From positions 62,961 through 126,960 of IMG/VR virus record IMGVR_UViG_3300021255_000060: 64,000 bases of DNA. The stretch is one strand, 5' to 3'. Position numbers and translations under genes: made by a program. The notes under the pieces were generated by a model that worked only from the letters and a program-made list of their open reading frames with translations, made no database searches and was not told where the DNA came from. Below are positions 16,583-31,598 of this stretch, in pieces (the stretch's first letter is position 1; each line of letters starts with the position of its first letter). Source of the stretch: a virus (Duplodnaviria > Heunggongvirae > Uroviricota > Caudoviricetes).

Positions 16583-16732
16583 AGTTGAGGACTATTCAAT
16601 AAATTCCTTTTATAACATTCGTTCATTATTAAAAACGATACCACTGTTGGTAACGAATATATTATTACATATTCCATAATTTAGATAATTAAAGCCTCAG
16701 ATGCAAATTAGATAGCTTCTGAGGCGGTAGTG

Positions 16733-16844: not shown

Positions 16845-16925
16845 ATTCGCGTAAACCAATTTCGCCATTTTCGTTAAAACGAAAAGTAGGATTCGAACCT
16901 ACATTAGTGTTCTTTTTGTAAGTAA
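16845..16925 (-). ncRNA. tRNA-like element: T-arm hairpin (GTAGG-TTCGAAT-CCTAC) plus a 3' hairpin, preceded by an ACTTACAA motif; no 5' half found
   Basis: Plus strand shows GGATTCGAACC at 16889-16899. The expected 5' acceptor partner is absent. Confidence 0.3.
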
Positions 16926-16950
16926 CATATACAAAATTAATAAATATTTT

Positions 16951-17451
16951 TTAATTTTCCAAATTTATTTTTGATAAAATTTCTACGGCTTTCTGAATGT
17001 CTTCTTGAGTCAATCCTCTATATGAATCAACTTTAACATAATGATTTAACTGTTCAAAATCTTCACGATCGTCAAAAATTACAAAATTTTCTACTTCTGG
17101 ATGCGCATCTAGCCAAAGTTGAATTTCCTCTCCCCTAGTAAAATGTATTTTGTTATTTCTTGTTTGAAAAATTGTAATAGGTGTTGTATCAATAATATTT
17201 CTAACACCTGCATTTTTTAAACGAGGTATACAGTAAGAACTAATTCTCCAATCAGAAGAAATTACAACTTTTAAATCAAATGTTTGTGTAAATTCATTTA
17301 GTAAATTAATTGCTACAGGATCCAAATCTGGATCACCTTGACTTTCTTCAATTGTTTTAGGTCTAACAGTCCATAGATAACTGTTAAGCACACCATCTAC
17401 ATCCAGGAATACTATCCTGGATGTTTCGGTGTTATTATTTTGTTCAATCAT
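16951..17451 (-). CDS. HAD-superfamily phosphatase
   Basis: N-terminal motif I FLDVDGVLN (D.DGV). 166 aa. Confidence 0.5.
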   Translation of the reverse strand: MIEQNNNTETSRIVFLDVDGVLNSYLWTVRPKTIEESQGDPDLDPVAINLLNEFTQTFDLKVVISSDWRISSYCIPRLKNAGVRNIIDTTPITIFQTRNNKIHFTRGEEIQLWLDAHPEVENFVIFDDREDFEQLNHYVKVDSYRGLTQEDIQKAVEILSKINLEN

Positions 17452-17663
17452 AATACTTTATTCACATGTTTAGTTCGTGTACGTAAACGAATCAACGCAT
17501 TAAGAAATACATCGTTTGTAAACGGTAAAAAGTTTTAAAATAATTCGCACTATCTACTCCATGGGTTTCTTCTCTAGTTAGTATTGCTCTAATTGCCTAG
17601 AAGCCGCAAATTAGTACTATAAGCTTTTTATACAAGAACTTATGACTTGTACATGATTTTGAA

Positions 17664-17912
17664 TTATGATTTAAACATTGCAGGGCATTCTCTTTTTCTA
17701 CGTTCATATTCTTCAAGAGAATCTTTTTCTTCTTGTAAATTATTATAAATTATATCTTTTAATTGTGTTATATCTCCATAAGTTGCAGTTGAACACAATC
17801 CTAAAAATACTTCAAACAGTTTTGAAAGATCAGAATCCCATGAACCTTCCCAAGAATATTTGTTTCCATGAGACTCTAAAGTTAACTTCATTGGTTTATC
17901 TATAACTGACAT
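17664..17912 (-). CDS. hypothetical protein
   Basis: 82-aa ORF. Confidence 0.25.
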   Translation of the reverse strand: MSVIDKPMKLTLESHGNKYSWEGSWDSDLSKLFEVFLGLCSTATYGDITQLKDIIYNNLQEEKDSLEEYERRKRECPAMFKS

Positions 17913-18969
17913 TTCCTATAAATTCTTCTAGTGTTCTTTTTCCACAATAACTCATTGTAGAACTAATAGCTGCTACAAATTGTTTTTCAAATTCAGGAAG
18001 TGTATTGTCTACTTCTATCCATTTTTCTTTGCCTTCTGAAAGTTTAATCTTAGTGTTACCCATTTCTTTTTGGGCCCTTTCAGTAGACATTCCATAATAC
18101 TTTCTATATGTCTTACGTTTAAAACTTATTGCACCTGATTCAGATTTAGCTGGAATATTAATAACTCTAGTTTCTCCACAAGCTTCTTCACATGCAGCAA
18201 ATAGTTTACCACACATTACATAATCTGCACCAATAGCAAGAGCTTTAATAATATCAGATATACTATCAATTCCTCCATCTGCTACAATTTTTGGAACAGA
18301 TTTATAAATGCCATCAAAATTCTTTATATTATTCTCAACATAGAATTTTCTATTTCTACAGCTTAGAATTAATTCAATAGGATCAAAATGAATTCCTGTT
18401 AAATCTGTAGTTGCACAAACATTGCCTGTACCAATACCTAATCTAATGTAATCAATTCCTGCTTTTGCATATTCCAAATATGTATTTGGGTTTGCTATAT
18501 TACCTGCCATTAAGATTAAATTCTCTCCAAATTTATTTTTTGCTTCTGTACACATATCAATTAATTTTTTCATGTGGCCATTAGCAATATCAACACAGAT
18601 TCGATATTCATCTTCAAGCGAATCATGTTCATCAATAAATTTTCTAAATTCATCTAATCCAATAGCAATCCAAATTAGTTGCTTTGCAATTTCTAGTCTT
18701 CTTTCATAAGACACCGTTCTTGGAATAATAGTATTAATACTATTTCTATCAAAATCAAGATAATTTTTATCATTTACAATAGATGACATTGGTGCAGTAA
18801 AAATTGGAAGATGTGCACCAGCTAAACACCACGCATCTGCATCATCAGACCAAAAAGCATCATAGTAAGGTAAACATTCAGAACGATGTTCAATATCTGA
18901 AATTACTGCAGGAATAATTTTAATTCTGCTATACTCACTCATAAATTTGTTCTCCGTTATAATTTGCAA
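17896..18969 (-). CDS. guaC: GMP reductase / IMPDH-family enzyme (GuaC-like)
   Basis: PIFTAPMSSIV (cf PIIAANMDTV), CVDIANGH (CIDVANGY), LMAGNIANP (ICAGNVVTG), GIGTGNVCATT (GIGPGSVCTT), ADGGIDSISDIIKALAIGADYVMCG, YYGMSTERAQK (FYGMSSESAMK). Confidence 0.65.
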   Translation of the reverse strand: MQIITENKFMSEYSRIKIIPAVISDIEHRSECLPYYDAFWSDDADAWCLAGAHLPIFTAPMSSIVNDKNYLDFDRNSINTIIPRTVSYERRLEIAKQLIWIAIGLDEFRKFIDEHDSLEDEYRICVDIANGHMKKLIDMCTEAKNKFGENLILMAGNIANPNTYLEYAKAGIDYIRLGIGTGNVCATTDLTGIHFDPIELILSCRNRKFYVENNIKNFDGIYKSVPKIVADGGIDSISDIIKALAIGADYVMCGKLFAACEEACGETRVINIPAKSESGAISFKRKTYRKYYGMSTERAQKEMGNTKIKLSEGKEKWIEVDNTLPEFEKQFVAAISSTMSYCGKRTLEEFIGNVSYR

Positions 18970-19129
18970 TAAAATCCATTTCTGGGATTACTTCATCAGT
19001 AGAAAAATAATTTTGAATTTTATTTTTATAAGATCTTACCAATATAAAATTATCATCTAATACATGACGAATTATGTATTTTACATATCCGTATGTATTT
19101 TTATGATAAACTATTTCTCCTGCATGCAT
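18935..19129 (-). CDS. hypothetical protein
   Basis: 64-aa ORF. Confidence 0.2.
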   Translation of the reverse strand: MHAGEIVYHKNTYGYVKYIIRHVLDDNFILVRSYKNKIQNYFSTDEVIPEMDFIANYNGEQIYE

Positions 19130-19416
19130 GGTTCTTCCAAAAATAATGTTAGATTGTTTTGTTTTAATTGTGTTTGTGTTAAAGGCCGAGTTAATGAAAA
19201 ACGATAGTCTTGATTATTTCCATCACTATCATATACAGTAACAATTATGTGTTTTTTGTTTAAATCAAAAATCCAACCTTTTAAAATCTCTCCATCTGAA
19301 TTTTGAATCCAGATTGTATCAAAAATCTCCAAATCTTGAAGAGTTTTAGAAGGAGGTGTAATAGGAACTTCAAGACCTGGAGATAGCCATTTTATTATTT
19401 TATTTAAAATTTTCAT
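19111..19416 (-). CDS. hypothetical protein
   Basis: 101-aa ORF. Confidence 0.25.
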   Translation of the reverse strand: MKILNKIIKWLSPGLEVPITPPSKTLQDLEIFDTIWIQNSDGEILKGWIFDLNKKHIIVTVYDSDGNNQDYRFSLTRPLTQTQLKQNNLTLFLEEPCMQEK

Positions 19417-19434
19417 AATATTTAATTTAAGTTA

Positions 19435-19521
19435 GGGAGTAGTAACAGATTCGAACTGTTGTGTTACTTTCGTAAAGCAGAGCCACATTCTGCTGGCATC
19501 GACCATCTAGCCGAACTACTC
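19435..19521 (-). tRNA. class II (long variable arm) tRNA; anticodon loop reads ATGTGGC, so the apparent anticodon is GUG (atypical)
   Basis: T-arm AACAG-TTCGAAT-CTGTT. Acceptor GAGTAGT/ACTACTC. Variable-arm hairpin TTAC-GAAA-GTAA. The anticodon stem GCAGA/TCTGC is the same as in E. coli tRNA-Tyr. Confidence 0.45.
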
Positions 19522-19761
19522 CATTACAATTACAGAATAATAATCAATAAAATTATCTGTAAAATCTGACCAATTAATCCACCAATCATAGTTGCACACC
19601 AATCCAATCAATCCCAATGTTCTCAAGATCAATCCTTAATTGGCTTATAATAACTATATTTGGCTTCATCTTTAAATTCCATTCCAGAAGCAAGTCCTGC
19701 TACAAAAAGAATAGTAAATAAAAATCCTGCGGGAATAGCAAACAACAAGTGCTTATCCCTA

Positions 19762-19941
19762 TTACTCTCTTTCAGTCACATCGCTATCTAATGCTTCATA
19801 GTAATCTATCTTCTTTTCCCGACGTCTTTTCTTTTCAGGATACTTTGCTTCTTTTGGTTGTTTTGATTTTTTGCTACGAACTTTCTCGAATGTTACTTCG
19901 TCTTCTTCATGTTCTAGTTCGTAAAGAGAAACTTTAGGCAT
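19762..19941 (-). CDS. small basic protein (59 aa)
   Basis: Hand translation: MPKVSLYELEHEEDEVTFEKVRSKKSKQPKEAKYPEKKRRREKKIDYYEALDSDVTERE. Confidence 0.25.
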   Translation of the reverse strand: MPKVSLYELEHEEDEVTFEKVRSKKSKQPKEAKYPEKKRRREKKIDYYEALDSDVTERE

Positions 19942-20115
19942 TTAAAGAAATATAAATTAAACATAAGACACTGAAAGTTACTTTCCACTTACAAGTCACC
20001 CATAACATAGGGTTTACGTTCTGATTTAGCTCAGACCGCTGCTTGTCCAGCAAGCCACTGGTTACATGTTGTTTAATTAAAATCACCTTTGATTTTGTAA
20101 GTGTCTTCTAATATG

Positions 20116-20190
20116 TCGGAGCACGTAGATTCGAACTACGGACCCTCTGCTTGTAAGGCAGATGCTCTGAACCAACTGAGCTATGCTCCG
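20116..20190 (-). tRNA. tRNA-Val (UAC)
   Basis: Sense CGGAGCA-TAGCTCAGTTGGTTCAGAGC..TCTGC-CTTACAA-GCAGA..CGTAG-TTCGAAT-CTACG..TGCTCCG. Confidence 0.6.
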
Positions 20191-20194
20191 ATAG

Positions 20195-20266
20195 TACTCG
20201 CGCCCAGATTCGAACTGGGGTTACTGCCGTGAAAGGGCAGGGACTTAACCATTGGTCGACACGAGC
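20195..20266 (-). tRNA. tRNA-Glu (UUC)
   Basis: Anticodon arm CTGCC-CTTTCAC-GGCAG. T-arm CCCAG-TTCGAAT-CTGGG. Acceptor GCTCGTG/CGCGAGT with G-U pairs. Confidence 0.5.
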
Positions 20267-20269
20267 ATA

Positions 20270-20600
20270 AATCCAGAGTATTGCACCCTCTGGCATGGAG
20301 ATGAAACCTAACAGCACTCCTAGGAAATTACTCCGTGGTCTGTCGCCTACATGCACTGCAGTCAATTCGGCTCAAGGGCTCTGGTTTGTCTCAATTTAAT
20401 ATAGCCCTTTGTTATAGTGACCCCGACGAGGCTCGAACTCGTGACCCCAACATTAGAACCGTTAACGGGACTTGCACCCGTGCCTCACTTGTTTCCCAAG
20501 TGTTTTCCACTACTCGAATTCTAACGGTTTGGTTCGTTACGGTGAACCACTCCTTATAAAGTGTTGTGCTCTACCAACTGAGCTACGAGGTCTTTCCACA
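20270..20600 (-). ncRNA. GC-richer ORF-free structured region with tRNA-like pieces (unresolved)
   Basis: Contains a canonical tRNA 5' half GACCTCGTAGCTCAGTTGGTAGAGCAC (sense of 20563-20592), a TTCGAGC T-loop-like hairpin at 20432-20448, the direct repeat GTGACCCC twice, and the hairpin CCAGAG..CTCTGG. I could not fold a complete cloverleaf by hand. Confidence 0.3.
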
Positions 20601-20634
20601 CCGTTTAGATGATGTCCAGAAATATTTCAAACAA

Positions 20635-20976
20635 CTATAAATCAAACTCTTCGTTTTCTTGGCCATATTCACCGTAAAAGTTCCTAAGAGCTTTTGTTGC
20701 ATCCATAAGTTCCTTTACTGTATGCGTCTCTGAATCTGTAATTACCACAATGTAATTCTTCACCAATTCGGTATATTTCTCAATCTCTTCATCAGTTGGA
20801 CTTTCAATGTAGTAAAAATCATCTTCCTTTGAAATAGACCAGTCCCCATTATGTTCAACGAGTTGCCCGAATGTTTTTCTTCCACAAGGAAAACCATAAA
20901 AAGTGCGGTTTGCCCATTCGCCGGTCTCAATCCATCCAAGGTTCTTAATAAAATCAAGTTTTTCTTTATAATTCAT
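20635..20976 (-). CDS. hypothetical protein
   Basis: True start probably MNYKEKLDFIKNLGWIETGEW... The N-terminal extension of ORF 20635..21186 is a translation of tRNA sequence. Confidence 0.35.
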   Translation of the reverse strand: MNYKEKLDFIKNLGWIETGEWANRTFYGFPCGRKTFGQLVEHNGDWSISKEDDFYYIESPTDEEIEKYTELVKNYIVVITDSETHTVKELMDATKALRNFYGEYGQENEEFDL

Positions 20977-20999
20977 AAACCTTAAATTTTTTAAATTTG

Positions 21000-21072
21000 T
21001 GATACTACCGGAATTAGAACCAGAGGCCCATACATTAAAAGTATATTGCTCTACCAACTGAGCTACAGGACC
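21000..21072 (-). tRNA. tRNA-Lys (UUU)-like, imperfect stems
   Basis: Sense GGTCCTG-TA-GCTCAGTTGGTAGAGC-A-ATATA-CTTTTAA-TGTAT.. The T-stem and acceptor carry G-U pairs and mismatches. Confidence 0.4.
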
Positions 21073-21077
21073 AATGG

Positions 21078-21150
21078 TGACTCCAGATGGATTCAAACCA
21101 TCGACCCACAGCTTAGAAGGCTGTTGCTCTATTCGCTGAGCTATGGAGCC
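21078..21150 (-). tRNA. tRNA-Arg (UCU)
   Basis: Sense GGCTCCA-TA-GCTCAGCGAATAGAGC-A-ACAGC-CTTCTAA-GCTGT-GGGTC-GATGG-TTTGAAT-CCATC-TGGAGTC. Confidence 0.6.
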
Positions 21151-21195
21151 ATTTAAATGTAACTTAATAATACGTTGCTCTACCAATTGAGCTAC

Positions 21196-21265
21196 TGAAA
21201 ATCTTCAGATGAGGATCGAACTCATAACATACGGGTTTCAGGCCAATTTTGATTTGTAAGTTACA
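21196..21265 (-). ncRNA. tRNA-like element: ACTTACAA motif, T-arm-like hairpin ATGAG-TTCGATC-CTCAT, then a 3' hairpin; no 5' half
   Basis: Same architecture as the elements at 16845-16925 and 28150-28228. Confidence 0.3.
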
Positions 21266-21403
21266 TATAAATTTAAATTACAATCCAATAATAAATTGCA
21301 TGAACTAAACTCTTAGCATATTGTGTTTTGTGTTTATACACAACATAATATTTATATCCAAAACTTCTCAAAAACTGAGTAGCTTTTATGATTCTGGGCA
21401 TTG

Positions 21404-21592
21404 TTAACTAAGTTTATTAATCCACCAACCAATTACGTCTTTATGAGGTTTATATAATGCAGCTACAAGTAGTAAAAATACTACTGCAGGAATAACCCAA
21501 GAAATAGGAGTATATACTGCCCAACATATACAAGCTGCAATTGCAATAATATCAAATAATACAATTAAAATTGTTCCAATAATAGCATCCAT
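21404..21592 (-). CDS. small membrane protein (2 TM helices)
   Basis: 62 aa, hydrophobic. Confidence 0.3.
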   Translation of the reverse strand: MDAIIGTILIVLFDIIAIAACICWAVYTPISWVIPAVVFLLLVAALYKPHKDVIGWWINKLS

Positions 21593-21594
21593 AA

Positions 21595-21816
21595 TTATTT
21601 CTTTTTAAATGGGTTAGAAGAAGACAGTCCGGTCCATCCAACATAAGTCCAAATTGACATAAAAAATATTAGAAGGAGAGAACCAAATACAACAACAACT
21701 TCAGGAAGTGCGTATGTCCAAAGCATAATAAGTCCAACCACTCCACAAATATCCAAAAAAATTACTAATAAAGTAACTAAAATGGCTTTAATTTTGTCTT
21801 TTGTTAAATCAGTCAT
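21595..21816 (-). CDS. small membrane protein (2 TM helices)
   Basis: 73 aa, adjacent to the previous gene. Confidence 0.3.
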   Translation of the reverse strand: MTDLTKDKIKAILVTLLVIFLDICGVVGLIMLWTYALPEVVVVFGSLLLIFFMSIWTYVGWTGLSSSNPFKKK

Positions 21817-21818
21817 TT

Positions 21819-22088
21819 TTATTTAATAAGAGCTCGTTTAGTGAAATCTTTTATAATGGCAACTAAATCATTAGTATCGTTAATAGACCAACCGTTATTT
21901 CCAGTTTTAATATTAATAAATCTTGCTACGCCATTATTTCTAGCAGTTAATGTCAAATCTTGACATTCATCTCTATCTTCTGTACAATCTACAGTCTGTA
22001 TATATGTAATACTAACTTCATCTATACAGACTTCGTAATCTCCATAATTCATTTCCTCGAAAGGAACAATCTTTTGTTTATTTTCCAT
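21819..22088 (-). CDS. hypothetical protein
   Basis: 89-aa ORF. Confidence 0.25.
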   Translation of the reverse strand: MENKQKIVPFEEMNYGDYEVCIDEVSITYIQTVDCTEDRDECQDLTLTARNNGVARFINIKTGNNGWSINDTNDLVAIIKDFTKRALIK

Positions 22089-22106
22089 AATAAATAATTA
22101 ATTTTG

Positions 22107-22177
22107 AGCAGAGTAAGGGAATTGAACCCTCGTATCAAGCTTGGAAGGCTTGCATTCTACCACTGAACTAACTCTGC
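22107..22177 (-). tRNA. tRNA-Gly (UCC)
   Basis: Sense GCAGAGT-TA-GTTCAGTGGTAGAAT-G-CAAGC-CTTCCAA-GCTTG..GAGGG-TTCAATT-CCCTT-ACTCTGC. Confidence 0.6.
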
Positions 22178-22186
22178 TTTATTTAG

Positions 22187-22274
22187 TGCCCATAGCAGGA
22201 CTCAAACCTGCACGCTACTATTACTTCGCACTTGATCCTAAGTCAAGGGTGTCTGTCTATTCCACCATATGGGC
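22187..22274 (-). tRNA. tRNA-Leu (UAG), class II
   Basis: Anticodon arm CTTGA-CTTAGGA-TCAAG. Long variable arm. T-arm GCAGG-TTTGAGT-CCTGC. Acceptor GCCCATA/TATGGGC. Confidence 0.55.
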
Positions 22275-22318
22275 ATAAGCGTTGTTATAAAACCGTGCAA
22301 CGCCACACGTTTGGTTAA

Positions 22319-23461
22319 TTAAAAAGGAATTTCTTCATCAAACATATTCATCTGTTGTTCCAATAAACTTGTTTTGGTGTTTACTGGTTCTTTGAACATT
22401 CTTAAGATATTGTCTTTATTACAATCAACAAATTTCTGAGCAACATCTTTTGTACTATCTTGAACCATTCTATCATATTTTAAATAAATTTGATCAAATA
22501 TGATATTATTGTGCATACCGGGACGTACACTAAAGGTGCAATCTTCTGGATATCTCATGTGAAATGCAATGTATTCTTTATTGCGAATTCTAGAATAATA
22601 ACATCTGTAAAGACAATGACACATCATTTCACTTTCCAGAAAAATATCTTTCTCTGTATTTAGAAGTTTAATGTTATCATCACCAATTACTCTTGTATAA
22701 ATCGGAGTTTCATCTTTTTTAGATAATTCTCCGTTTCTTTTAGCAAGAATTTGCTTTTGGTGTTCTTCATTAATTCTTTTTCCTGACCAAGTAAAATCTA
22801 CAATTTGATTAGATTCACAAGCGTACGTTAATAAATCACGATACAGATGTAGATTAGTAAAATGACGTTTAGCAATAACCTGAATACTTTGTTCTACATT
22901 TTTTGTAAAATCTCGTAAGTCATATATACTAAATTCATAAAAATTAGAATTAGTACAGTATTCTCTAACACTTTTCCATGATACATCTTTTAATTGGAAA
23001 CAAGATGCTCCAATTCGTTTATATAATGTTTCTTCACTATATATTCTTTTTGTAAGAAGTGCTCTAAGTATCGTTGATTTTACAAAATAAAAACTTCTAA
23101 TATATTCAGGAATATCTCTAAACCAATTTAAGTTTAAATGTTTTAAAAGAAGCATAACAGCTTCAGCATTACCTCTGACTATAACTTTATTTGGTTCAAT
23201 ATAGACAGATGAAGAAGTTTCTGATTTTCTAAAAATTCTACAGCCAACTCTATTTACTTTTAGAAAGTTAACTGTTGCATAAATTGCATTGTTTTTTACA
23301 CTTAATTTAAATAATTTGTCACCTTGACCTGCATAGTTATATTTTTCTTTATAACTAAGTTCATTAAAATTAAGTGGAAGTTGTTTACAAAGTACTTCTT
23401 GAAAAGAAGTTAATGGAAAATTCTCTACAAACTTTCTAAGTGTAATAGGTTTCTGTTTCAT
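22319..23461 (-). CDS. hypothetical protein (380 aa) ending DEEIPF (third SSB-tip-like tail)
   Basis: Intact ORF. C-terminus ...QQMNMFDEEIPF. Confidence 0.35.
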   Translation of the reverse strand: MKQKPITLRKFVENFPLTSFQEVLCKQLPLNFNELSYKEKYNYAGQGDKLFKLSVKNNAIYATVNFLKVNRVGCRIFRKSETSSSVYIEPNKVIVRGNAEAVMLLLKHLNLNWFRDIPEYIRSFYFVKSTILRALLTKRIYSEETLYKRIGASCFQLKDVSWKSVREYCTNSNFYEFSIYDLRDFTKNVEQSIQVIAKRHFTNLHLYRDLLTYACESNQIVDFTWSGKRINEEHQKQILAKRNGELSKKDETPIYTRVIGDDNIKLLNTEKDIFLESEMMCHCLYRCYYSRIRNKEYIAFHMRYPEDCTFSVRPGMHNNIIFDQIYLKYDRMVQDSTKDVAQKFVDCNKDNILRMFKEPVNTKTSLLEQQMNMFDEEIPF

Positions 23462-23484
23462 AATAATAAAATGAATATTTATAA

Positions 23485-23560
23485 GTCGGGATAGTGCGAC
23501 TCGAACGCACGACCACGTGGTCCCAAACCACGCATTCTAACCAACTGAACTACATCCCGA
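23485..23560 (-). tRNA. tRNA-Pro (UGG)
   Basis: Sense TCGGGAT-GTAGTTCAGTTGGTTAGAAT-G-CGTGG-TTTGGGA-CCACG..GTGCG-TTCGAGT-CGCAC-TATCCCGA. Confidence 0.6.
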
Positions 23561-24060
23561 TGATGTGATTTTTGTCAACTTTTCACAATACTACTTATTG
23601 ATTATCCGGCTCAACCGTACCTCAGCATTTGTTCTACCCATACGATCCTGCTTCGCATTGTTGTTTAACCATTCCTGAGTTATTTTCACCTTTCAAAACT
23701 CCGAAATCGGCGTTCACATGCCTACTCACTAAAACTAGTTTTAAGGAGTAACGTTACCTCTCCCTTAGTGTTCATTTTACAGTGGTCTCACACATTACCG
23801 CTGATATTAACGCATATCTCCACGACGCGCTTTGAGGACGGCGTAGTCCTTGCGGAAGAGGAGGAATTCGAATCCCCGGAACGTTATTAGCGTTCGCTTG
23901 TTTTCAAGACAAGTGCATTAAACCTCTCTGCCACTCTTCCAAAGCGAGAGACTTTCTGTTCCCAGGCGTCTCTCTAAGCCAACCCGGCTGGAAGACACTC
24001 CAGCAAATGCAAGAATCGCATTTCTACGATTCCGTACCCTTTTCAACAACCTGGTTGATA
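23561..24060 (-). ncRNA. about 500-nt ORF-free, GC-richer region between tRNA-Pro and tRNA-Cys (candidate structured ncRNA)
   Basis: No ORF of 60 aa or more on either strand. Visibly higher GC than the flanks. Contains GGAGGAATTCGAATCCCCGG and several stem-forming segments. Confidence 0.3.
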
Positions 24061-24065
24061 GGATG

Positions 24066-24138
24066 TGGAACGTAGGGGATTTGAACCCCTCCTATAGGCT
24101 TGCAAAGCCCACGTGCTACCAACTATCACTAACGTCCC
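24066..24138 (-). tRNA. tRNA-Cys (GCA)
   Basis: Anticodon arm GGGCT-TTGCAAG-AGCCT. T-arm GAGGGG-TTCAAAT-CCCCT. Acceptor GGGACGT/ACGTTCC. Confidence 0.55.
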
Positions 24139-24756: not shown

Positions 24757-24762
24757 ATTTCA

Positions 24763-24963
24763 TTAATGGTTTAAAGTATCGTGTAATTCTTGCAAGATCC
24801 GCAATTGATTATCCACTTTAACTTTTATAGAAAAATATGAAAACCAGTTTGGACTAAAAGAACTAGCTTTAAGTAAATTTTTATTCAAATCTTCTATAAT
24901 TTTTCTAGTATCTTTTATAGATGATTGAACATTTTCCTTTAATTTATCTATTGCTGTTTCCAT
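24763..24963 (-). CDS. hypothetical protein
   Basis: 66-aa ORF. Confidence 0.2.
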   Translation of the reverse strand: METAIDKLKENVQSSIKDTRKIIEDLNKNLLKASSFSPNWFSYFSIKVKVDNQLRILQELHDTLNH

Positions 24964-25547
24964 AATTCAATTTGAGAATTAATCTTATTGTTTAATTCTT
25001 CCCAAGAAATAGGAAAATAATTGTTGTTGTCTACTCCAACATCATATTGTGTTGGATATAGATATTGAAGTCTTCCAATATCTGCACCAGTAGAACCTGG
25101 TTGACTATGAACATGTCCAAATGCTTGAATTGCATAGTTATTACCATATAGTACCGAATCACTATGGGCAAAGCATAAAAATGGAAAGTGATTTAAATAA
25201 ACTGTTCTTCCATCAACAGTAATTCTTGCTTGATAAGCAACATCTTCAAACAAATGATACAAAGATTGTTGAAGATTCTTATCATCATGATTACCTTTTA
25301 TGAGAATTATATGCCCATTTAATTGTTCTCTAATACTTTTCCACTTAGGTGCACCAGCAAAACAAAAATCACCAAGATGAAAAATAGTATCATCTTGTTT
25401 AACAACCGAATTCCAATTATCAATTAATGCTTGATCATGTTCTTCAATTGTATTCCAAGGACGATTACAAAATCGTAGAATATTATTATGACAAAAATGA
25501 GAATCGGATGTAAACCACAATCCATCTCCTGTATATTTAGTTATCAT
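24948..25547 (-). CDS. metallophosphoesterase
   Basis: Motifs FTSDSHFCH, IFHLGDFCF, IKGNHD and FGHVHS. Confidence 0.5.
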   Translation of the reverse strand: MITKYTGDGLWFTSDSHFCHNNILRFCNRPWNTIEEHDQALIDNWNSVVKQDDTIFHLGDFCFAGAPKWKSIREQLNGHIILIKGNHDDKNLQQSLYHLFEDVAYQARITVDGRTVYLNHFPFLCFAHSDSVLYGNNYAIQAFGHVHSQPGSTGADIGRLQYLYPTQYDVGVDNNNYFPISWEELNNKINSQIELWKQQ

Positions 25548-25854
25548 TTTCTACATCTTCGTAATCTATAAATTGTATCTTCTCAGACATTTTCTTTTTT
25601 AGATATGTTTGAGCTTCATTATAATCATCGAACTCTGCAGGCCAATCCACCATATGTTCATAAATATTTGTTACTTCAAAGAATGGCCACCAAAGTAAAA
25701 ACCTTTTAAACTGTGGAACATATATAGTTTTACCACCATGATAATGTTCTTTTTTAATCCGGAATTTCATATCTTTTAAACTTTTGTCTATTATAAACTG
25801 TTTTAGGAACATGAATCTTTTTTCTAAAGATAATTTGTTTACCATGAGATTCAA
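25537..25854 (-). CDS. hypothetical protein
   Basis: 105-aa ORF. Confidence 0.25.
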   Translation of the reverse strand: MNLMVNKLSLEKRFMFLKQFIIDKSLKDMKFRIKKEHYHGGKTIYVPQFKRFLLWWPFFEVTNIYEHMVDWPAEFDDYNEAQTYLKKKMSEKIQFIDYEDVENDN

Positions 25855-25923
25855 TTTCCTCTTCTCTAGCTGCCTTTCTATTAGCCAGCATAAAGTCTTT
25901 TTGTGTAATTCTGTATTTCATAG

Positions 25924-25995
25924 AGCCTCCTATCGGAATCGAACCAATATCTACTGATTACAAATCAGTTATAATAACCTTTATACTAAGGAGGC
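25924..25995 (-). tRNA. tRNA-Thr (UGU)
   Basis: Anticodon arm ACTGA-TTTGTAA-TCAGT. T-arm ATTGG-TTCGATT-CCGAT. Acceptor GCCTCCT/AGGAGGC. AT-rich D-arm. Confidence 0.5.
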
Positions 25996-26003
25996 AAGCA
26001 TAA

Positions 26004-26309
26004 TTATCCAATTCTACAACGTGTTATATCAAAAGCAGTCTCAAGCTTTTTATAAATATCAGATAAGACATTATTATATCTAATTTTATACTTTCCAGTT
26101 AAATTTGGTTTTCTTGCAGAATTAAATAAATTTATTATCCAAATTTTACAATTTACATATTGCATGTACGTTTTGCAAGAATCTAGTACTTTACATACAT
26201 AGTCACATTTAACAAACAAACCATTTGGTCCATAAACCTCTTCCATATAAATTTCTTTAGAAGATTTTGGAAGCAGCTTCTTTAATGAGATTTTCATGAT
26301 TAAATGCAA
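26004..26309 (-). CDS. hypothetical protein
   Basis: 101-aa ORF. Confidence 0.25.
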   Translation of the reverse strand: MHLIMKISLKKLLPKSSKEIYMEEVYGPNGLFVKCDYVCKVLDSCKTYMQYVNCKIWIINLFNSARKPNLTGKYKIRYNNVLSDIYKKLETAFDITRCRIG

Positions 26310-26742
26310 ATTGATAGTTATCTATTTCATCAAGTTTAATCCATTTAACTTCTTCTACTTCATCTGGTTCAGAATTAGATGTATCAAATCTTTGAGTAAA
26401 ATATGTAGAAGAATAAAATATAAATCTAAATGTTACATTCTGTCTAGTTTCATTTGGATCGTCATTGTATCCAAGATTATCTTCAATCAATGTATAACTT
26501 ACATCAACTCCGGTTTCTTCCTTAATTTCACGAATGCAACATTCTTTAACTGTTTCATTATAGTCAAGATATCCGCAAGGACAACACCAGTATCCTTGAT
26601 AATTTGGAGTACCTTTTCCTCTTTTCGTTATTAAAACAACTGGTTCTTGTTTTTCGTTTACAGAAAATACAAAACCTACGGTAGCAATTGAACGACTAAT
26701 TCAATATTCTCTACCATCTACTATTACTGGAAAATTATTCAT
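26257..26742 (-). CDS. NUDIX hydrolase (in-frame TGA codons)
   Basis: Hand translation from the ATG at 26742 gives MNNFPVIVDGREY[W]ISRS...GYWCCPCGYLDYNETVKECCIREIKEETGV, a Nudix box G.5E.7REuxEExGu. It is in frame with ORF 26257..26490. Confidence 0.55.
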
Positions 26743-26758
26743 ATTAAAAATGTTTTAG

Positions 26759-26833
26759 AAGCGCAGGTTGGACTCGAACCAACGTACACCTGCTTATGAG
26801 ACAGGGCTGGAACCATCTCCAGTCTACCGCGCT
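26759..26833 (-). tRNA. tRNA-Met/Ile2-type (CAU)
   Basis: Anticodon arm CCTGT-CTCATAA-GCAGG. T-arm GTTGG-TTCGAGT-CCAAC. Acceptor AGCGCGG/CTGCGCT. Confidence 0.5.
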
Positions 26834-26841
26834 ATTTTAAG

Positions 26842-26912
26842 TTGCGCTGCTCTGGTTCGAACAGAGACTAAGGGAACCAAAATCCCTGGTGCTGCCATTA
26901 CACCACAGCGCA
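26842..26912 (-). tRNA. tRNA-Gln (UUG)
   Basis: Anticodon arm AGGGA-TTTTGGT-TCCCT. T-arm CTCTG-TTCGAAC-CAGAG. Acceptor TGCGCTG/CAGCGCA. Confidence 0.5.
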
Positions 26913-26989
26913 ATACAGATTATGTAACTTAAACAAAAATTATCAATTTAAACTCATAATAAAAAGGTTGTAAGTTACATTATTAAACA

Positions 26990-27676
26990 CTAAATAACAG
27001 TTACCAAATATTCAGTAACTATATATCTTCGCCAAGATGCACTAAATATCATTTGTGTACCTTTAGGAAGTTTCCATTTATGGACCATATTATAAATATT
27101 TTTCTTTGTTAATGGTCCTATAACAAATTTAGCAGAAGATGTCCAAGGTAGTTCTTCATCGTTAGTATACCATTCATCAGTATCTTCATTGTACCACATT
27201 GAATCCTTATTTTTACTTCTTTTCCCTTTTACCCAATAAGGTGTTTCAATATGCCAACACATATTAGAATCTCTAAATGGTGTTCCAAGAATTCTTTCTA
27301 TTTTTATTTTCTTACCTGTTTCTGGACGTACATATGTATCATATGGAGATGTTCCATTTTTTATTTGTTCATACAAACTTTCATTGTGATCAGTAAATGC
27401 TGTCTTAGACCATCCACCTCCATATTGTTCTTTTAATCTATTCTGAATAAAATCAAAAGGACAATTTCTAATTAACCAAATATCAAAATATGTTGGAGTG
27501 TTCCAAAGAACTTTTTCTTTGCCAAATTCTTCCTTTGTAATATCTGGATAATAAATAAAATCAGATGGATAGATTACTTGTCCATTCGAAAGTTTGAATG
27601 ATTTATCTTGACACCAATCAATTACTTTCTTGTAATCTTCGTATGATGTAATATATGTCTTATCTATTCCTGCCAT
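26990..27676 (-). CDS. hypothetical protein
   Basis: 228-aa ORF. Confidence 0.3.
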   Translation of the reverse strand: MAGIDKTYITSYEDYKKVIDWCQDKSFKLSNGQVIYPSDFIYYPDITKEEFGKEKVLWNTPTYFDIWLIRNCPFDFIQNRLKEQYGGGWSKTAFTDHNESLYEQIKNGTSPYDTYVRPETGKKIKIERILGTPFRDSNMCWHIETPYWVKGKRSKNKDSMWYNEDTDEWYTNDEELPWTSSAKFVIGPLTKKNIYNMVHKWKLPKGTQMIFSASWRRYIVTEYLVTVI

Positions 27677-28006
27677 ATTCTAATAGACATTGTTTTAAAA
27701 ATTCTTCAATTACTTTTTTATTATTACCATCTGCGTTCTTAAGAAGCATACGATAAAAGTTGATATAGGTAATCAACGTTGTTTTAGCTTGTCCTTGAAA
27801 AATCATAATAAATTAAAAGTCTTATTTCATCAGCCGGAGGAAAGACTTTAAGAAACCCGGAAGTCCGTGAGTGTAGGATTTGTTTTGTATTATGGCCAAG
27901 TACCTACTTTCCTATAGTTAGACAACCAAAATGGAAATTAAAGTCGCTATAGATGGAATTTGCCACTCCCCCACATTTCCTTTTAAAAGTCTAATGCTAC
28001 TTTGGC

Positions 28007-28078
28007 TTAACATGTTGGATTTGAACCAACGTATTCAAGTTCCTGATACTTGCGTGATAACCACTTCACTAATGTTAG
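28007..28078 (-). tRNA. class I tRNA with apparent anticodon CAG (atypical for bacterial tRNA-Leu, which has a long variable arm)
   Basis: Anticodon arm CAAGT-ATCAGGA-ACTTG. D-arm GTGA-AGTGGTTA-TCAC. T-arm GTTGG-TTCAAAT-CCAAC. Short variable loop AATAC. Discriminator G. Confidence 0.4.
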
Positions 28079-28149
28079 ATAGATCTAAATTATTGTAAGT
28101 AGCATAAAATATATTTCTAAAGACACTTAAATCTTTGCTGGAACCATTC

Positions 28150-28228
28150 AGCTATTTGACCTAAAAGATGGCAGTCAAAACCGGATTCGAACCGATATAT
28201 AAGAAATTATTTTATTGTAAGTGTCTTA
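28150..28228 (-). ncRNA. tRNA-like element: ACTTACAA motif, TAnnTTTG-like motif (TTTCTTATATATCGG), T-arm ATCGG-TTCGAAT-CCGGT, then TTTTGACTG-CCA followed by a hairpin
   Basis: Lies immediately downstream of the terminator hairpin of the vWA gene. No 5' acceptor partner was found within 100 nt. Confidence 0.3.
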
Positions 28229-28245
28229 TAACCATTTCGTTTTAC

Positions 28246-28292
28246 AAATTTAGGGATTATTTCTGAAAAATCCAAATTTAATCCCTAAATTT
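28246..28292 (-). terminator. stem-loop terminator of the vWA gene
   Basis: Sense ATTTAGGGATTA-AATTTGGATTTTTCAGAAA-TAATCCCTAAAT, a perfect 12-bp stem directly after the stop codon. Confidence 0.4.
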
Positions 28293-28294
28293 TT

Positions 28295-30121
28295 TTAAAG
28301 AACATTCTGTCGGACTGGTTCATATCTGTTACTCCTATAGAGAGATTGAAGTGGAGTATAAACATCAAAGATGTCAATATCCTTAAAATTGACAAGCATT
28401 TGCTCAATCAATTCAATCTTTCCAGGAATATACATTACCTGATCAAGATCTGCAAAATGATTTACATCATAATTGTTATAGTTCTTGATCTCAATAATTA
28501 CAAGATATGGAGTAAATCCAAGATACTGCTGACATTTATGCTGGAATTCCAGTACGCTTTCCTTAGCGTTCCAACTAGAGTTTATATCACCATCAGAACA
28601 GATAACCCATACAGGATATTCAGCAAGAGCATCCTTAATCTCAGGATCATTCAATCCAATCCTCTTGATTTCATCAGTCATGCCTCCAAGATTGGTTCCA
28701 CCTCCCTTAAAGGCAGCATTGAGATACTTAGAGATTCTCTCATAGTTCTCATACAAACTAAGTTCTGGAACAACAAACGGTTCAGGCTTAATTTGAATTG
28801 CAGGCTGACGATGCCAGAACGAATTAACTTGATTGTGTCCCTGCAAATCAATAGCAGAAAGGAATCTACCCTGATTTGCAAACATTCCAATCAAATTACG
28901 AGCAGTATCATCTGGATTCTTAACAAGAAGAATTGATGCTAGGAACGCTGCAAAATTGAATGGAGCACCTTGCATAGATCCAGATTCATCAATGATTGTC
29001 AAGAAGTTAAATGGAAGGTTTACCTTATTGGCAAAAGACTCCAAACGGAGTTTATCAACATTTCCATTAAGAATATCTTGATAGAGCTCCTTAAATGTTG
29101 TTGCACCAACAGTAACTTTTGCTTCTTTTTTAACTTTCTCAAGACGAACCTGTTCTTCTACAGATGCTGTACCCTGACGAACCTTTTCTTCAAGAACACG
29201 CTGTTCTTTCTGAGCCTCATCTTTATAACGTTCCCAGTTTTCAAACCAAGTCTTCAGTTTAGGCCACTTAAGACCAGATTCAGGTTTATTCTTCTGATTA
29301 TATGAATAGAACACTCTATTCTTTACACGATATCTTGCTTGTGCAGGAAGTTTGTTGAGCCAGTTAGTAAACTCTACCTGATCAAACTCATTAATCTTTC
29401 CAGAGGAGAATAGAACAGACTCAAGATCAGAGTTATACTGCTTACGCCACATTCGATATCCTCTAAAGTTGGCATAATTGCCAGCAAAGATATAATCCCA
29501 TCCAAGCTTATTAGAAATATCCTTAAGGAACTGAGCCTTTTCCATCATATTCCTATAAGTATCAGTAAGCATCTGTTTGTGACCAGAACGCTTACCAAGA
29601 CGAGGAAGAGTCAAGAACTTTGCTACAAGCATCTTATTAAAAGGATTTGAACCATTAATAATACTTACAACATAGTCTGCAAGGTCATTCCTATAAGTCG
29701 GATTGGAAAGCATACGATAAACAGCAGAAACTCTATAAGTTCCAGGGATAGTTTTTACACGATTCCTGAAAAGATGATCAAAGCAAGTATACTCATTAAA
29801 GAGTCCAGCATTAAGAAATACTTTAAACTGTTCATAGTCGTTCTGAATCATCCAATTCATAATCGTAAAGAATCCTTCACGATTCGACTGTCCACCAGTA
29901 TCTTTCTTCTTTCCACGAAAGATATTGTGTTCACGATTAGTAATATCTCCAATAGAGAAGAGAAGAGAATAGAACATCTCTTTCTTTACTTTATCAGATT
30001 TTACTTCATTATATGCAGCAGTGATTGCAGCATCATTAATATTATGTCCCTGGAAAAGAGACAAACAAGCCTTTAGTCCGTAGAACGGATTTTCGTTCTT
30101 CTTGTTAAATTCGATTTGCAT
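28295..30121 (-). CDS. von Willebrand factor A (MIDAS) domain protein with a roughly 370-aa helical N-terminal region; Ro60/TROVE-like architecture suspected
   Basis: 608-aa intact ORF. NFLTIIDESGSMQG (DxSGS MIDAS) lies at about residues 378-383, the same position as the DVSASM MIDAS in 60-kDa Ro proteins. Coiled-coil EEQVRLEKVKKEAK. Confidence 0.45.
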   Translation of the reverse strand: MQIEFNKKNENPFYGLKACLSLFQGHNINDAAITAAYNEVKSDKVKKEMFYSLLFSIGDITNREHNIFRGKKKDTGGQSNREGFFTIMNWMIQNDYEQFKVFLNAGLFNEYTCFDHLFRNRVKTIPGTYRVSAVYRMLSNPTYRNDLADYVVSIINGSNPFNKMLVAKFLTLPRLGKRSGHKQMLTDTYRNMMEKAQFLKDISNKLGWDYIFAGNYANFRGYRMWRKQYNSDLESVLFSSGKINEFDQVEFTNWLNKLPAQARYRVKNRVFYSYNQKNKPESGLKWPKLKTWFENWERYKDEAQKEQRVLEEKVRQGTASVEEQVRLEKVKKEAKVTVGATTFKELYQDILNGNVDKLRLESFANKVNLPFNFLTIIDESGSMQGAPFNFAAFLASILLVKNPDDTARNLIGMFANQGRFLSAIDLQGHNQVNSFWHRQPAIQIKPEPFVVPELSLYENYERISKYLNAAFKGGGTNLGGMTDEIKRIGLNDPEIKDALAEYPVWVICSDGDINSSWNAKESVLEFQHKCQQYLGFTPYLVIIEIKNYNNYDVNHFADLDQVMYIPGKIELIEQMLVNFKDIDIFDVYTPLQSLYRSNRYEPVRQNVL

Positions 30122-30272
30122 GTTACTTCTTTATTTCAACATTTGTCACAAAGACCACAACGGTCAAATAAATTATAAATCGTTCAATATATAGGCTTAG
30201 AGGAGGTCATTACAACCTCCTCTCCACACTCTATACATTTGTACGTATGTGTATAAGATAACATTCTATAGA

Positions 30273-30698
30273 TTACTGCAATGCAGCAATTTGATCTTCG
30301 ATTTCCTTAATTCGATCTTCAGGTGTCTTCTGAGATTCTTTAAGCTCTTCAAGCTTGGAATTAAGTACAGCTAGTTCATGCTCTTTCTTCTGTTCCTCTT
30401 CTTTAGCAAGTTTATAACCAAGTGCCAGATTAACAAATTCCCTCTTGAAGGTAAGATTTTTAATTGCTTCTTCATTAGGATTCTTAACCCATTCATCTTC
30501 AAGAGAAAGAGCATTAATCTGTTTATCCAAGGATTTAATCAAAGATCGAAGTGAATTGATTGTAAGGTTCTTAACAATATCAATTGCTGAATACTGCTGA
30601 CCCATAGGTCCAGTAACAACAATATCATTCATTATTGCATATGCAATTTTGTCTTTAAGCTGAGACATGTGCTCTTCAGTAAAATTAATCTTTCCCAT
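30273..30698 (-). CDS. coiled-coil protein
   Basis: 141-aa ORF. Confidence 0.3.
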   Translation of the reverse strand: MGKINFTEEHMSQLKDKIAYAIMNDIVVTGPMGQQYSAIDIVKNLTINSLRSLIKSLDKQINALSLEDEWVKNPNEEAIKNLTFKREFVNLALGYKLAKEEEQKKEHELAVLNSKLEELKESQKTPEDRIKEIEDQIAALQ

Positions 30699-31452
30699 AG
30701 ATTTTTAATTCTTTAGTTTCTGTATTAAATTCAAATATTTCTCTACTATCTATACAATATGCAGGAACATGATTAGTATTTCTTATTGTAGAAATATTTA
30801 TAAATATTCCTTGATGTTCTAACTGCGTATGTCCAAAAATCTGAATAACTGAAAATGGATTTAACATTTCAGATGCATCACACCAAAATGGTCCACCATA
30901 TGGTGCTTCTCCACCTCTAATGTATCCAATGTCAAATATGGTAGATCTAAAGTTTGTATACCACATCTTTTTAACTAATCCATCATAAGAACATTCTTTG
31001 TTCCATTCAGAATTAATCCAATCCAATAATCCATTTAAGTCTACATCATCTGGAATAAATTTTTCTCTTTTATTTGCATCTATCCAACCTTTACTTATTC
31101 CAGCATGACTAAATATAACTTCAGTAAATTGTTTAAATGGTTTAAATAGTTCTATATTTTCTCTAAACAATGCATGTGCATCATTATAGAATTTCTTATT
31201 AAATCTAGAACAACCATAATCTTCCCAAATATAATGACAATCATGATTACCTGCTAATAGTGTCACATTGCTATTATTCTTAGCAAAATCAATAATTTCT
31301 TTAAGATTTGCTAATCCATCTTCAAAGGAGCATCCTTCATATGAATATGGATCAAGATAATCTCCAAGAAAAACAATTGGAGTATCTTTTACTTCCAATA
31401 CAGGTTTGTAAAAATCCCGACAATGAATGTCTGGGCATATAATAAGCTTCAT
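30685..31452 (-). CDS. PPP-family Ser/Thr phosphatase-like metallophosphoesterase (lambda phosphatase-like)
   Basis: Motifs ICPDIHC, FLGDYLDPYSYEG (GDxVDRG-like) and LAGNHDCHY (GNHE-like). Confidence 0.5.
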   Translation of the reverse strand: MKLIICPDIHCRDFYKPVLEVKDTPIVFLGDYLDPYSYEGCSFEDGLANLKEIIDFAKNNSNVTLLAGNHDCHYIWEDYGCSRFNKKFYNDAHALFRENIELFKPFKQFTEVIFSHAGISKGWIDANKREKFIPDDVDLNGLLDWINSEWNKECSYDGLVKKMWYTNFRSTIFDIGYIRGGEAPYGGPFWCDASEMLNPFSVIQIFGHTQLEHQGIFINISTIRNTNHVPAYCIDSREIFEFNTETKELKIYGKD

Positions 31453-31487
31453 ATTTTTATTTTTTTATTTTAATTAGTCAGCAGGCT

Positions 31488-31588
31488 GGGACTCGAACCC
31501 AGATCACGGCAATCCAAAGAGCAAACTTGAGTTTGTAAGTATCTTATAATATACTTGATACGTGTCCTAACCATTAGACGACCTGCTA
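31488..31588 (-). ncRNA. about 100-nt tRNA-like RNA: canonical acceptor, D-arm and T-arm, but an aberrant 60-nt central region containing the ACTTACAA motif
   Basis: Sense 5' TAGCAGG-TC-GTC-TAATGGTTAG-GAC ... GATACTTACAAACTCAAGTTTG ... CTGGG-TTCGAGT-CCCAG-CCTGCTG. No standard 7-nt anticodon loop could be drawn. Either an intron-containing tRNA or a tRNA mimic. Confidence 0.4.
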
Positions 31589-31598
31589 AATATTTAGT

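Follow-up and report, generated by a model that had tools for sequence, protein, structure and literature searches.

A family of helix-tagged, permuted tRNA-like RNAs next to the gene of a candidate Ro60-like protein in a large uncultivated phage

Introduction

What kind of RNA is encoded where the parts of tRNAs recur, apparently out of order, behind one short sequence motif? The question is raised by a 64,000-nucleotide stretch of Caudoviricetes DNA (positions 62,961 to 126,960 of IMG/VR record IMGVR_UViG_3300021255_000060; this whole stretch is called the window below), for which a preliminary description had listed six copies of such a motif, some of them next to a T arm and a "second hairpin". 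Here we report that the motif is one strand of a covarying helix, that this helix encloses circularly permuted tRNA-like genes, and that the resulting units are linked in diverged phages to the gene of a 608-aa vWA/MIDAS protein, designated Ro608. We consider it probable that the RNA family and Ro608 together constitute an expanded, divergent phage Ro60-like/Y-RNA-like system. Known tRNA mimics among the Y RNAs come from a small number of bacteria and phages (PMC4201824, PMC12135203, PMC7824862). A genome typically has one or two of them, and what they do is not yet clear.

Results

The recurrent motif is one strand of a covarying helix

The 8-mer TTGTAAGT, which reads ACTTACAA on the minus strand, has 13 exact occurrences on the two strands of the window as compared with 3.85 ± 2.15 in dinucleotide shuffles, none of which (0/100) attained 13 copies. 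Nine of the 13 share the orientation given in the preliminary description, and the plus-strand sites of TTGTAAGT at 16916, 20095, 21254, 28215, 31533, and 40250 are where they were reported to be. So are the neighboring T arms (16902–16886, 21225–21209, 28196–28180, and 31502–31486), the copy at 20095 directly after tRNA-Val, and the copy at 40250 after the region 40262–40545. The identity of 15–17 nt that was also claimed extends to three copies (a 17-mer with ≤2 mismatches) but not to the remaining ones; the element that is truly conserved is GNNACTTACAA (minus strand; GNNACUU-ACAA), with nine matches in the window against 0.62 expected. Eight of the nine are on the minus strand (16916, 20095, 21254, 26968, 28093, 28215, 31533, and 40250), those at 26968 and 28093 being additions to the earlier list. 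The lone plus-strand copy, GATACTTACAA at 35354–35364, has no complementary partner, is surrounded by minus-strand open reading frames, and is probably a chance match.

Six of the eight minus-strand copies have a complementary strand (AAGU plus 4–5 more bases; AAGUN′N′C) ~40–110 nt downstream. The 5′ and 3′ strands are ATGTTACTT and AAGTAACAT for copy 16916, ATGTAACTT and AAGTTACAT for copies 21254 and 26968 alike, ATGCTACTT and AAGTAGCAT for copy 28093, AAGACACTT and AAGTGTCTT for copy 28215, and TGATACTT and AAGTATCA for copy 40250. Copy 31533 has its partner upstream (AAGTAT), forming a hairpin, and copy 20095 has a split partner, i.e. TTGTAAGT, then a hairpin, then TGTCTT. Without constraints, RNAfold predicts both the closing helix, for all six units whose partner is downstream, and the tRNA-like stems of the permuted units.

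Megablast of 16 kb against isolated phages returned only tRNA-sized matches, and hence there is no close cultured relative. A pattern scan of IMG/VR, supplemented by scripts, detected the system on 21 locus strands, most of which belong to contigs of ~90–185 kb. These related loci carry 145 motifs on the system strands and 6 on the opposite strands, with up to 13 motifs within 15 kb in one relative.

A strict complementary partner accompanies 72/145 of the motifs in the related loci, compared with 17/1306 control ACTT sites. The consensus of the 72 units is A-A-G-N-N-ACUU-ACAA with AAGU-N′-N′-C-U-U, a continuous helix of ~9 bp with flanking bases unpaired and with ACAA, likewise unpaired, on just one of the strands; all of the units have G at position −3 (72/72). 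When the partner was picked by its invariant bases only, both variable pairs were Watson-Crick in 65/98 cases as opposed to 25.7 ± 3.6 in 2000 shuffles (maximum 39), in a test that spanned six dinucleotide types. The covariation of the variable pairs argues for recognition of a folded strand, not of the duplex, and the invariant unpaired ACAA together with the invariant G-C pair suggests that recognition is sequence-specific. A more tolerant helix scan (8 of 9 complementary positions, one mismatch allowed in ACAA) gave 359 matches versus ~300 in shuffles and was discarded because its yield equalled shuffle noise.

These results bear directly on a DNA-level role for the motif, which would then be a phage promoter (TATAAG..ACTTACAA) or form the inverted repeats at the ends of a small mobile or recombination cassette; we regard such a role as highly improbable. 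Its strand specificity, its AT-rich and intergenic character, the TATA-like stretch upstream of some copies, the variable cargo between inverted repeats, and the existence of empty sites would all fit such an element. The TATA-like upstream part is, however, not conserved (positions −12 to −6 vary), the number of sigma-70-like promoter matches in the region does not exceed chance (76 versus 77), the motif also occurs inside colinear tRNA-like genes, and the cargo is a conserved structured RNA, besides the covariation that points away from duplex recognition. A relic of recombination, as had been suggested, is disfavored because the helix covaries and its structure is kept through compensatory changes in diverged phages. 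Readings of ACTTACAA as the anticodon loop of tRNA-Val and as a promoter were both abandoned after the covarying partner strand emerged.

The helix encloses circularly permuted tRNA-like genes

A scan of both strands (128 kb) for a T arm and acceptor 3′ strand followed within 0–14 nt by a complementary acceptor 5′ strand yielded only three perfect matches (5/5 T stem, TTCGA loop, 7/7 acceptor), each of which is then followed by a D arm; all three sit behind the motif. The units P1, P2, and P3 are circularly permuted tRNA-like genes, in which the order is T arm, acceptor 3′ strand, a linker of 0–11 nt, acceptor 5′ strand, and D arm. The anatomy first described has to be redrawn accordingly, in that a closed acceptor stem, followed by a D arm, makes up the "second hairpin", and the motif is one strand of a closing helix. 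The underlying observation was real but incomplete, having missed two copies, the partner strands, and the acceptor 5′ strand with the D arm.

P1 (16812–16928, minus strand) holds a T arm, acceptor, D arm, and anticodon-type arm within the closing helix, whose 5′ strand ATGTTACTT (16928–16920) is followed by ACAA (16919–16916) and whose 3′ strand is AAGTAACAT (16820–16812). Between them lie the T arm (16902–16886), the acceptor 3′ strand (16885–16879), a TTTA linker, the acceptor 5′ strand (16874–16868), the D arm (16865–16849), and a canonical 5-bp/7-nt anticodon-type arm (AATGA/CTACTAA/TCATT, 16847–16831), so that the earlier statement that such units have no usable anticodon arm is false for this one. 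Re-circularized in silico, P1 is called tRNA-Ser(act) by ARAGORN. P2 (21157–21266, minus strand; helix strands 21266–21258 and 21165–21157) is a YrlA-like permuted unit comprising a small hairpin (GG-CCTGAAA-CC, 21244–21234), the stem strand CGTATGTT (21233–21226), a T arm (21225–21209), a closed acceptor (CTGAAGA/TTTTCAG, 21208–21195), a D arm (21192–21177), and the stem strand AACGTAT (21176–21170). P3 (28120–28227, minus strand; helix strands 28227–28219 and 28128–28120) comprises a T arm (28196–28180), the acceptor 3′ strand with G-CCA (28179–28169), a 7-nt U-rich linker, the acceptor 5′ strand (28161–28155), and a D arm (28152–28137).

Structural selection on the cargo is evident when P3 is aligned with four relatives: 15/26 consensus pairs show compensatory double changes, including 6/7 acceptor pairs, and N-CCA is kept in all five sequences (5/5). 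Among the ordinary tRNAs that ARAGORN finds in the window, CCA is encoded in 2/18, one of these being the helix-flanked tRNA(cag), and encoded CCA is thus a trait of the motif-associated units. Bacterial RNase P binds 3′-RCCA, and the encoded CCA is therefore consistent with recognition by bacterial RNase P and with a CCA-ended product. After re-circularization and removal of the helix in silico, ARAGORN made a tRNA call for 24/36 parsed candidates, where both numbers include several ordinary tRNAs inside or beside units. Considered as tRNAs, the copies of the window carry anticodons that are odd or redundant (act, aaa), and none is obtained for P2. In the window, Rfam at the gathering threshold finds nothing but tRNAs.

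The permuted domain resembles that of the Y RNA YrlA

YrlA is bound by Ro60 and has ends that pair with each other and a tRNA-like middle in the order variable (V) arm, T arm, acceptor-like stem-loop, and D arm; in 254 bacteria and 22 phages its gene lies on the same strand as that of Ro60 and no more than 4 kb away (PMC4201824). The domain order and the closure by end pairing are the same in the units described here. A match to the Rfam YrlA model (RF02553) covers 21170–21233 of P2 with 39.1 bits (E = 1.1e-5 in a 15.5-kb search) and spans model positions 23–88, i.e. the tRNA-like domain, with near-perfect agreement at the unpaired UGUU, UA, and UAU and in the D loop. Thr-like units in the loci L067, L070, L079, and L011 match the full-length YrlA model with 39–49 bits (E = 6e-8 to 5e-5), and each of them adjoins a homolog of the 608-aa gene. 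The role as tRNA-mimic noncoding RNA that had been suggested at the outset is supported by the YrlA-type architecture and one sequence match, although not in the anatomy given then.

In Mycobacterium smegmatis, RNase P cleaves YrlA in its 7-bp acceptor, CCA is added to the upstream fragment, and the two fragments remain associated with Rsr; a shorter second Y RNA is known as YrlB (PMC4201824). Of this RNase P/CCA type, the prerequisites at the sequence level are seen here (7-bp acceptor, N-CCA, U-rich linker). P3 lies 68 nt from the 608-aa gene on the same strand, an arrangement kept in relatives; the ~4 kb noted for YrlA refers to a Ro60 (TROVE) ortholog, whereas the protein here is Ro60-like by predicted fold only and not by sequence.

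The units are linked to the gene of a vWA protein with a predicted Ro60-like fold

Ro608 is encoded at 28295–30121 (minus strand), its stop codon 68 nt upstream of P3, and is the candidate Ro60-like partner of the RNAs. In terms of sequence, it matches no Pfam family, has a weak match to a PHROG family annotated "RNA-binding protein", and shows no match to PDB sequences by phmmer or profile search, whereas the MIDAS motif DxSGS of its C-terminal vWA domain (D378, S380, G381, and S382) is invariant. Close homologs number more than 1200 and lie on contigs of ~160–178 kb. A profile search of 1.84 billion representatives gave 191 Ro608 clusters at 50% identity, and in that search the family was closed, with no bridge to TROVE.

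The AlphaFold model of Ro608 (predicted local distance difference test score, pLDDT, of 82) has Ro60 structures as its best fold matches in the PDB, along with vWA folds. The top Foldseek match is Rsr of Deinococcus radiodurans over 586 columns (E = 2.9e-5), with a low template modeling (TM) score of 0.25–0.28; a search of a viral structure library gave, as best matches over the full length, vWA/DUF7788 proteins with no assigned function. By predicted fold and by context, Ro608 appears Ro60-like, which is not to say that it is a demonstrated Ro60.

The linkage of the units with this vWA protein is conserved. Such adjacency is seen in ~15 related phage contigs of ~170 kb. Homologs at 41–68% identity lie directly beside motif units in at least ten loci, the units being downstream of the gene in L008, L010, L011, L026, L054, L067, and L071 and upstream of it in L036, L040, and L060. 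Ro608 is present in 15/21 loci with units versus 3/58 without them (Fisher p = 6e-9). A relative with 73% identity has its P3 ortholog 210 nt downstream and retains the surrounding gene order, which in the window (30273–32381, minus strand) and in L080/L081 (1729–7827) comprises genes for a Band-7/SPFH protein, a metallophosphoesterase, a 141-aa coiled-coil protein, and the 608-aa vWA protein; the metallophosphoesterase and Band-7 genes are those kept in the relative. In at least 10 loci the vWA gene is immediately preceded by the coiled-coil gene (30273–30698, minus strand, in the window). In L055 (1060–4087), L046 (6338–9376), and L037 (4963–7971), an insertion of ~1.2 kb splits the 608-aa gene between residues ~510 and ~511 and could be an intron, an intein, or a homing-endonuclease insertion.

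One helix occurs with several topologies

The remaining units of the window, all on the minus strand, carry other cargo. Directly after tRNA-Val, the unit 19963–20109 has the leader AGAAGACACTTACAA (20109–20095), ~100 nt of structured cargo, and a 3′ part made of TTGTAAGT (19994–19987), a hairpin (19986–19971), and TGTCTTAT (19970–19963). Its cargo (19995–20094, ~100 nt) has several predicted hairpins and no T arm, and the sequence CCCTATGTTATGGG in it is shared with the P2 junction CCCGTATGTTATGAG. The unit 27994–28105 surrounds a colinear tRNA(cag), the helix being formed by ATGCTACTT (28105–28097) and AAGTAGCAT (28002–27994); this tRNA (28003–28078) encodes CCA, has a C1xA72 mismatch, and would read the Leu codon CUG while having no long variable arm.

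In the colinear tRNA-like gene 31478–31588, the motif helix is an internal hairpin (AAGTAT, 31556–31551, with ATACTT-ACAA, 31542–31533) set between an acceptor 5′ strand (31588–31582) and D arm (31579–31564) on one side and a T arm (31502–31486) and acceptor 3′ strand (31485–31479) on the other. Colinear homologues are present in L026, L067, L070, L072, and L079. The intron mode of ARAGORN cannot handle an insertion at 29/30 and is uninformative on this unit. Two "empty" units consist of the helix around an AT-rich loop of 41 nt (26922–26980, ATGTAACTT/AAGTTACAT, YrlB-like) and around a loop of 40 nt (40206–40261, TGATACTT/AAGTATCA). The latter directly follows a GC-richer, apparently structured segment of ~280 nt (40262–40545, minus strand), which lies between it and a small open reading frame and for which an Rfam search (E up to 1) gave no match. 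The units are spread over 24 kb among genes and tRNAs, not only beside the 608-aa gene.

With the related loci included, the units fall into several classes. Permuted units with the junction in the variable arm have class-II-like bodies with intact anticodon arms (e.g. Ser UGA/CGA and Leu CAA/UAA); permuted Thr-like units have it inside the anticodon-stem 5′ strand ("..ACG" + "GN-loop-NCCGT"); and permuted units with a 7-bp acceptor have NCCA and a U-rich linker. Colinear Gln/His-like genes bear the hairpin at position 29/30, which is the Thr-like junction, while further classes are helix-flanked colinear tRNAs and empty units in which the helix has no tRNA cargo. In related loci, unusual anticodons (AAG, ATG, GAT) are found on several colinear tRNAs that the helix flanks. 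Regions of L026 (9966–10391), L008 (2531–2650 and 2768–2906), and L010 (~3230–3350) give sub-threshold matches to transfer-messenger RNA (tmRNA; 33 bits and E = 1.5e-9 in L026). The units there have a GGGG...CCCC acceptor, a T arm, and the motif hairpin without a D or anticodon arm, and from their sequence they appear to be RNAs like the tRNA-like domain of tmRNA, bearing the same helix tag.

Are the units tRNA genes?

The principal alternative is that the units are true tRNA genes, whether circularly permuted, intron-containing, or split, in which the helix-ACAA module is a processing signal comparable to the bulge-helix-bulge (BHB), directing cleavage and ligation or unligated use and thereby providing aminoacylatable tRNAs for a phage that recodes TGA. 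The 3′ half does lie upstream of the 5′ half with a linker of 0–12 nt, as in permuted genes, and N-CCA is encoded and conserved in one class when the ordinary tRNAs of the phage mostly do without it. There are canonical 7-nt anticodon-type loops, often with Ser or Leu anticodons in class-II-like bodies, and the anticodon stem of the Thr-like and Gln/His-like units is complete only when "..ACG" and "GN-loop-NCCGT" are joined, with bases that covary. The same module serves as the internal hairpin of colinear genes and as the leader/trailer stem of permuted ones, as the archaeal BHB does, and re-circularized candidates are called tRNAs at the rate given above, ordinary ones among them. However, the helix has no bulge-helix-bulge geometry, and its flanking bases do not pair, C6 and position −2 being CG in 1/72 units only. 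Among ~40 window proteins scanned, no splicing endonuclease, RtcB, Rnl, or PNK was recognized. The nearest match in both sequence and structure is YrlA, a stable unspliced RNA, down to the UGUU and UAU junction bases. The window copies are themselves odd (anticodon ACT; a CCTGAAA loop with C33; a degenerate copy at 31533) and redundant with ordinary Thr, Gln, Ser, and His tRNAs, the empty units hold nothing to mature, and a literature search found no such tRNAs described in phages. Taken together, we judge this alternative rather unlikely.

A bolder form of the idea is that no virus of bacteria was previously known to have circularly permuted or split tRNA genes and that the units would be the first. 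RNase P would open the closed acceptor, and the resulting two-piece tRNA would be held together by the motif helix, end in its encoded CCA, and be aminoacylated and used, the Ro60-like protein acting as chaperone or assembly factor. Such molecules would be, for example, extra Ser/Leu-type decoders or nuclease-resistant substitutes for host tRNAs in a phage with TGA as a sense codon. We think this unlikely.

Finally, the helix could be a generic element of transcript processing or stability (an RNase III/E site or an exonuclease block) in polycistronic tRNA/mRNA, with no dedicated protein, and the permuted cargos could be by-products of tandem tRNA duplication and decay. The placement of units between genes and tRNAs over 24 kb agrees with this, as do the units that flank ordinary tRNAs, the one abutting the 3′ end of tRNA-Val, and the empty units; permuted order may, moreover, arise from tandem duplicates, which is the established model for permuted tRNA genes. 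On the other hand, an AU-rich helix of 9 bp is too short for classical RNase III, and the invariant ACAA and G-C pair suggest sequence-specific recognition. The compensatory changes in 15/26 pairs and the conserved CCA reflect structural selection, with which an origin of the permuted domains by decay fits poorly, and the adjacency to Ro608 is maintained across 41–68% identity. A processing element of this kind is, in our estimate, quite unlikely.

Discussion

A Ro60-like/Y-RNA-like system as the probable reading

The reading that we consider probable is that of a Ro60-like/Y-RNA-like system in which units are transcribed from the minus strand within the phage tRNA region. The motif supplies the 5′ strand of the helix followed by unpaired ACAA, and this module would close small noncoding RNAs or, in colinear genes, decorate them. 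The cargo is modular: some units hold a permuted tRNA-like domain, which may include an anticodon-type arm, others an ordinary tRNA, and others none. This is the YrlA/YrlB type of architecture, in which the protein-binding site is in the terminal stem and the tRNA-like domain is the effector or mimic. Helix and ACAA may be the binding site of Ro608. Where a unit combines a 7-bp acceptor with encoded N-CCA and a U-rich linker, host RNase P could cut at the start of the acceptor 5′ strand, with trimming back to CCA, so that a two-piece tRNA-shaped RNA joined by the acceptor stem and the motif helix would result, like the one demonstrated by experiment for YrlA of M. smegmatis. The ribonucleoprotein might then act on tRNA metabolism during infection, in quality control, in repair, or as a decoy for tRNA-targeting enzymes.

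Several observations weigh against this reading. Every YrlA score is below the Rfam gathering score of 69, and P1 and P3 have no match to the YrlA covariance model. GNCGAAN0-1G, the putative contact of Ro60, is found in 1/72 units, where it is away from the 5′ end; GNNACUUACAA occupies its place. TROVE was not found by Pfam search (E up to 10) in Ro608 or its most distant relatives, and the counts behind the co-occurrence of Ro608 and units are not independent because the phages are related. Many units retain canonical anticodon loops (U33, R37) and N-CCA, which are superfluous for a pure protein-binding scaffold, and the number of units, from six to at least 13 per genome, is far above the one or two of known Y RNAs.

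Phage setting and significance

The phage has more than 18 tRNAs and a reassigned TGA. A GroEL-like gene (13591–15180, minus strand) reaches 529 aa only with TGA readthrough, code-4 open reading frames tile 81% of the window, and tRNAs with the anticodons UCA (called "SeC" by ARAGORN; 16732–16803, minus strand) and UUA (called "Stop"; 20999–21073, minus strand) are found near the GroEL-like gene. An 87-nt tRNA at 19435–19521 (minus strand) with a His anticodon (GTG) has a class-II-like body with a long variable arm and is reported by ARAGORN, not by Rfam; the same GTG anticodon occurs with a class-II-like body in a permuted unit of L079.

If the reading is right, the Ro60/Y-RNA system extends to a large group of uncultivated phages, whose natural variants would help to dissect the purpose of the tRNA-like module, be it repair, quality control, or a defense decoy. 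The presence of two-piece or permuted tRNAs in viruses that infect bacteria would become testable. It also becomes understandable why standard tRNA and Rfam annotation overlooks these genes.

Comparison with known systems

Circularly permuted and split tRNA genes are known from Cyanidioschyzon merolae and other algae, Thermofilum pendens, and Nanoarchaeum. The genes described here are like them in having the 3′ half first, a short linker, a complementary leader and trailer, and one module that is reused at colinear intron positions and at permuted termini. They are unlike them in that BHB geometry is lacking, no splicing endonuclease or ligase was found among the window proteins, the host is bacterial, and the junctions are in the variable arm or at positions 29/30 of the anticodon stem.

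Y-RNA-like tRNA mimics beside Ro60 are already known, phages included (PMC4201824, PMC12135203, PMC7824862), and Thermus phage phiLo has Ro60 with the Y-RNA-like RNAs Yrl1 and Yrl2 (PMC12135203); a literature search for Ro60 or Y RNA in crAss-like or gut phages yielded nothing specific. As with Ro60/Rsr, that of phiLo included, a phage protein of helical-plus-vWA/MIDAS type, here by predicted fold, has Y-RNA-like genes alongside. Ro608 differs in its length (608 aa versus ~460–530 aa), its low global TM score, the lack of a TROVE Pfam match, the small size of its family, which is confined to phage contigs of ~170 kb, and the 141-aa coiled-coil gene upstream.

The closest likeness is to YrlA and YrlB. 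In both cases the RNA ends pair, a (V)-T arm, closed acceptor-like stem, and D arm follow one another with UGUU, UA, and UAU as junction bases, the gene of a protein of Ro60 type, here by predicted fold only, is adjacent on the same strand, and there is a short companion without a tRNA domain (YrlB there, the empty units here). The 7-bp acceptor and CCA are shared with YrlA of M. smegmatis, in the window as features of the sequence alone. In contrast to YrlA, GNCGAAN0-1G is replaced by the GNNACUU-ACAA helix, CCA is encoded instead of added, many units keep a full anticodon-type arm, the window has 8 units where one or two per genome are known, the module is also found inside colinear tRNA-like genes as a hairpin and flanking ordinary tRNAs, and the partner protein has no TROVE sequence signature. 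Compared with the literature, what appears to be new is the different recognition module, the scale of the family (8 units here) and its range of topologies, the persistence of anticodon arms together with encoded CCA, a partner protein that TROVE profiles do not detect, and the setting in TGA-recoded, uncultivated phages of ~170 kb. One helix "tag" with several topologies and many tRNA-shaped RNAs would amount to a modular version of the Y-RNA idea.

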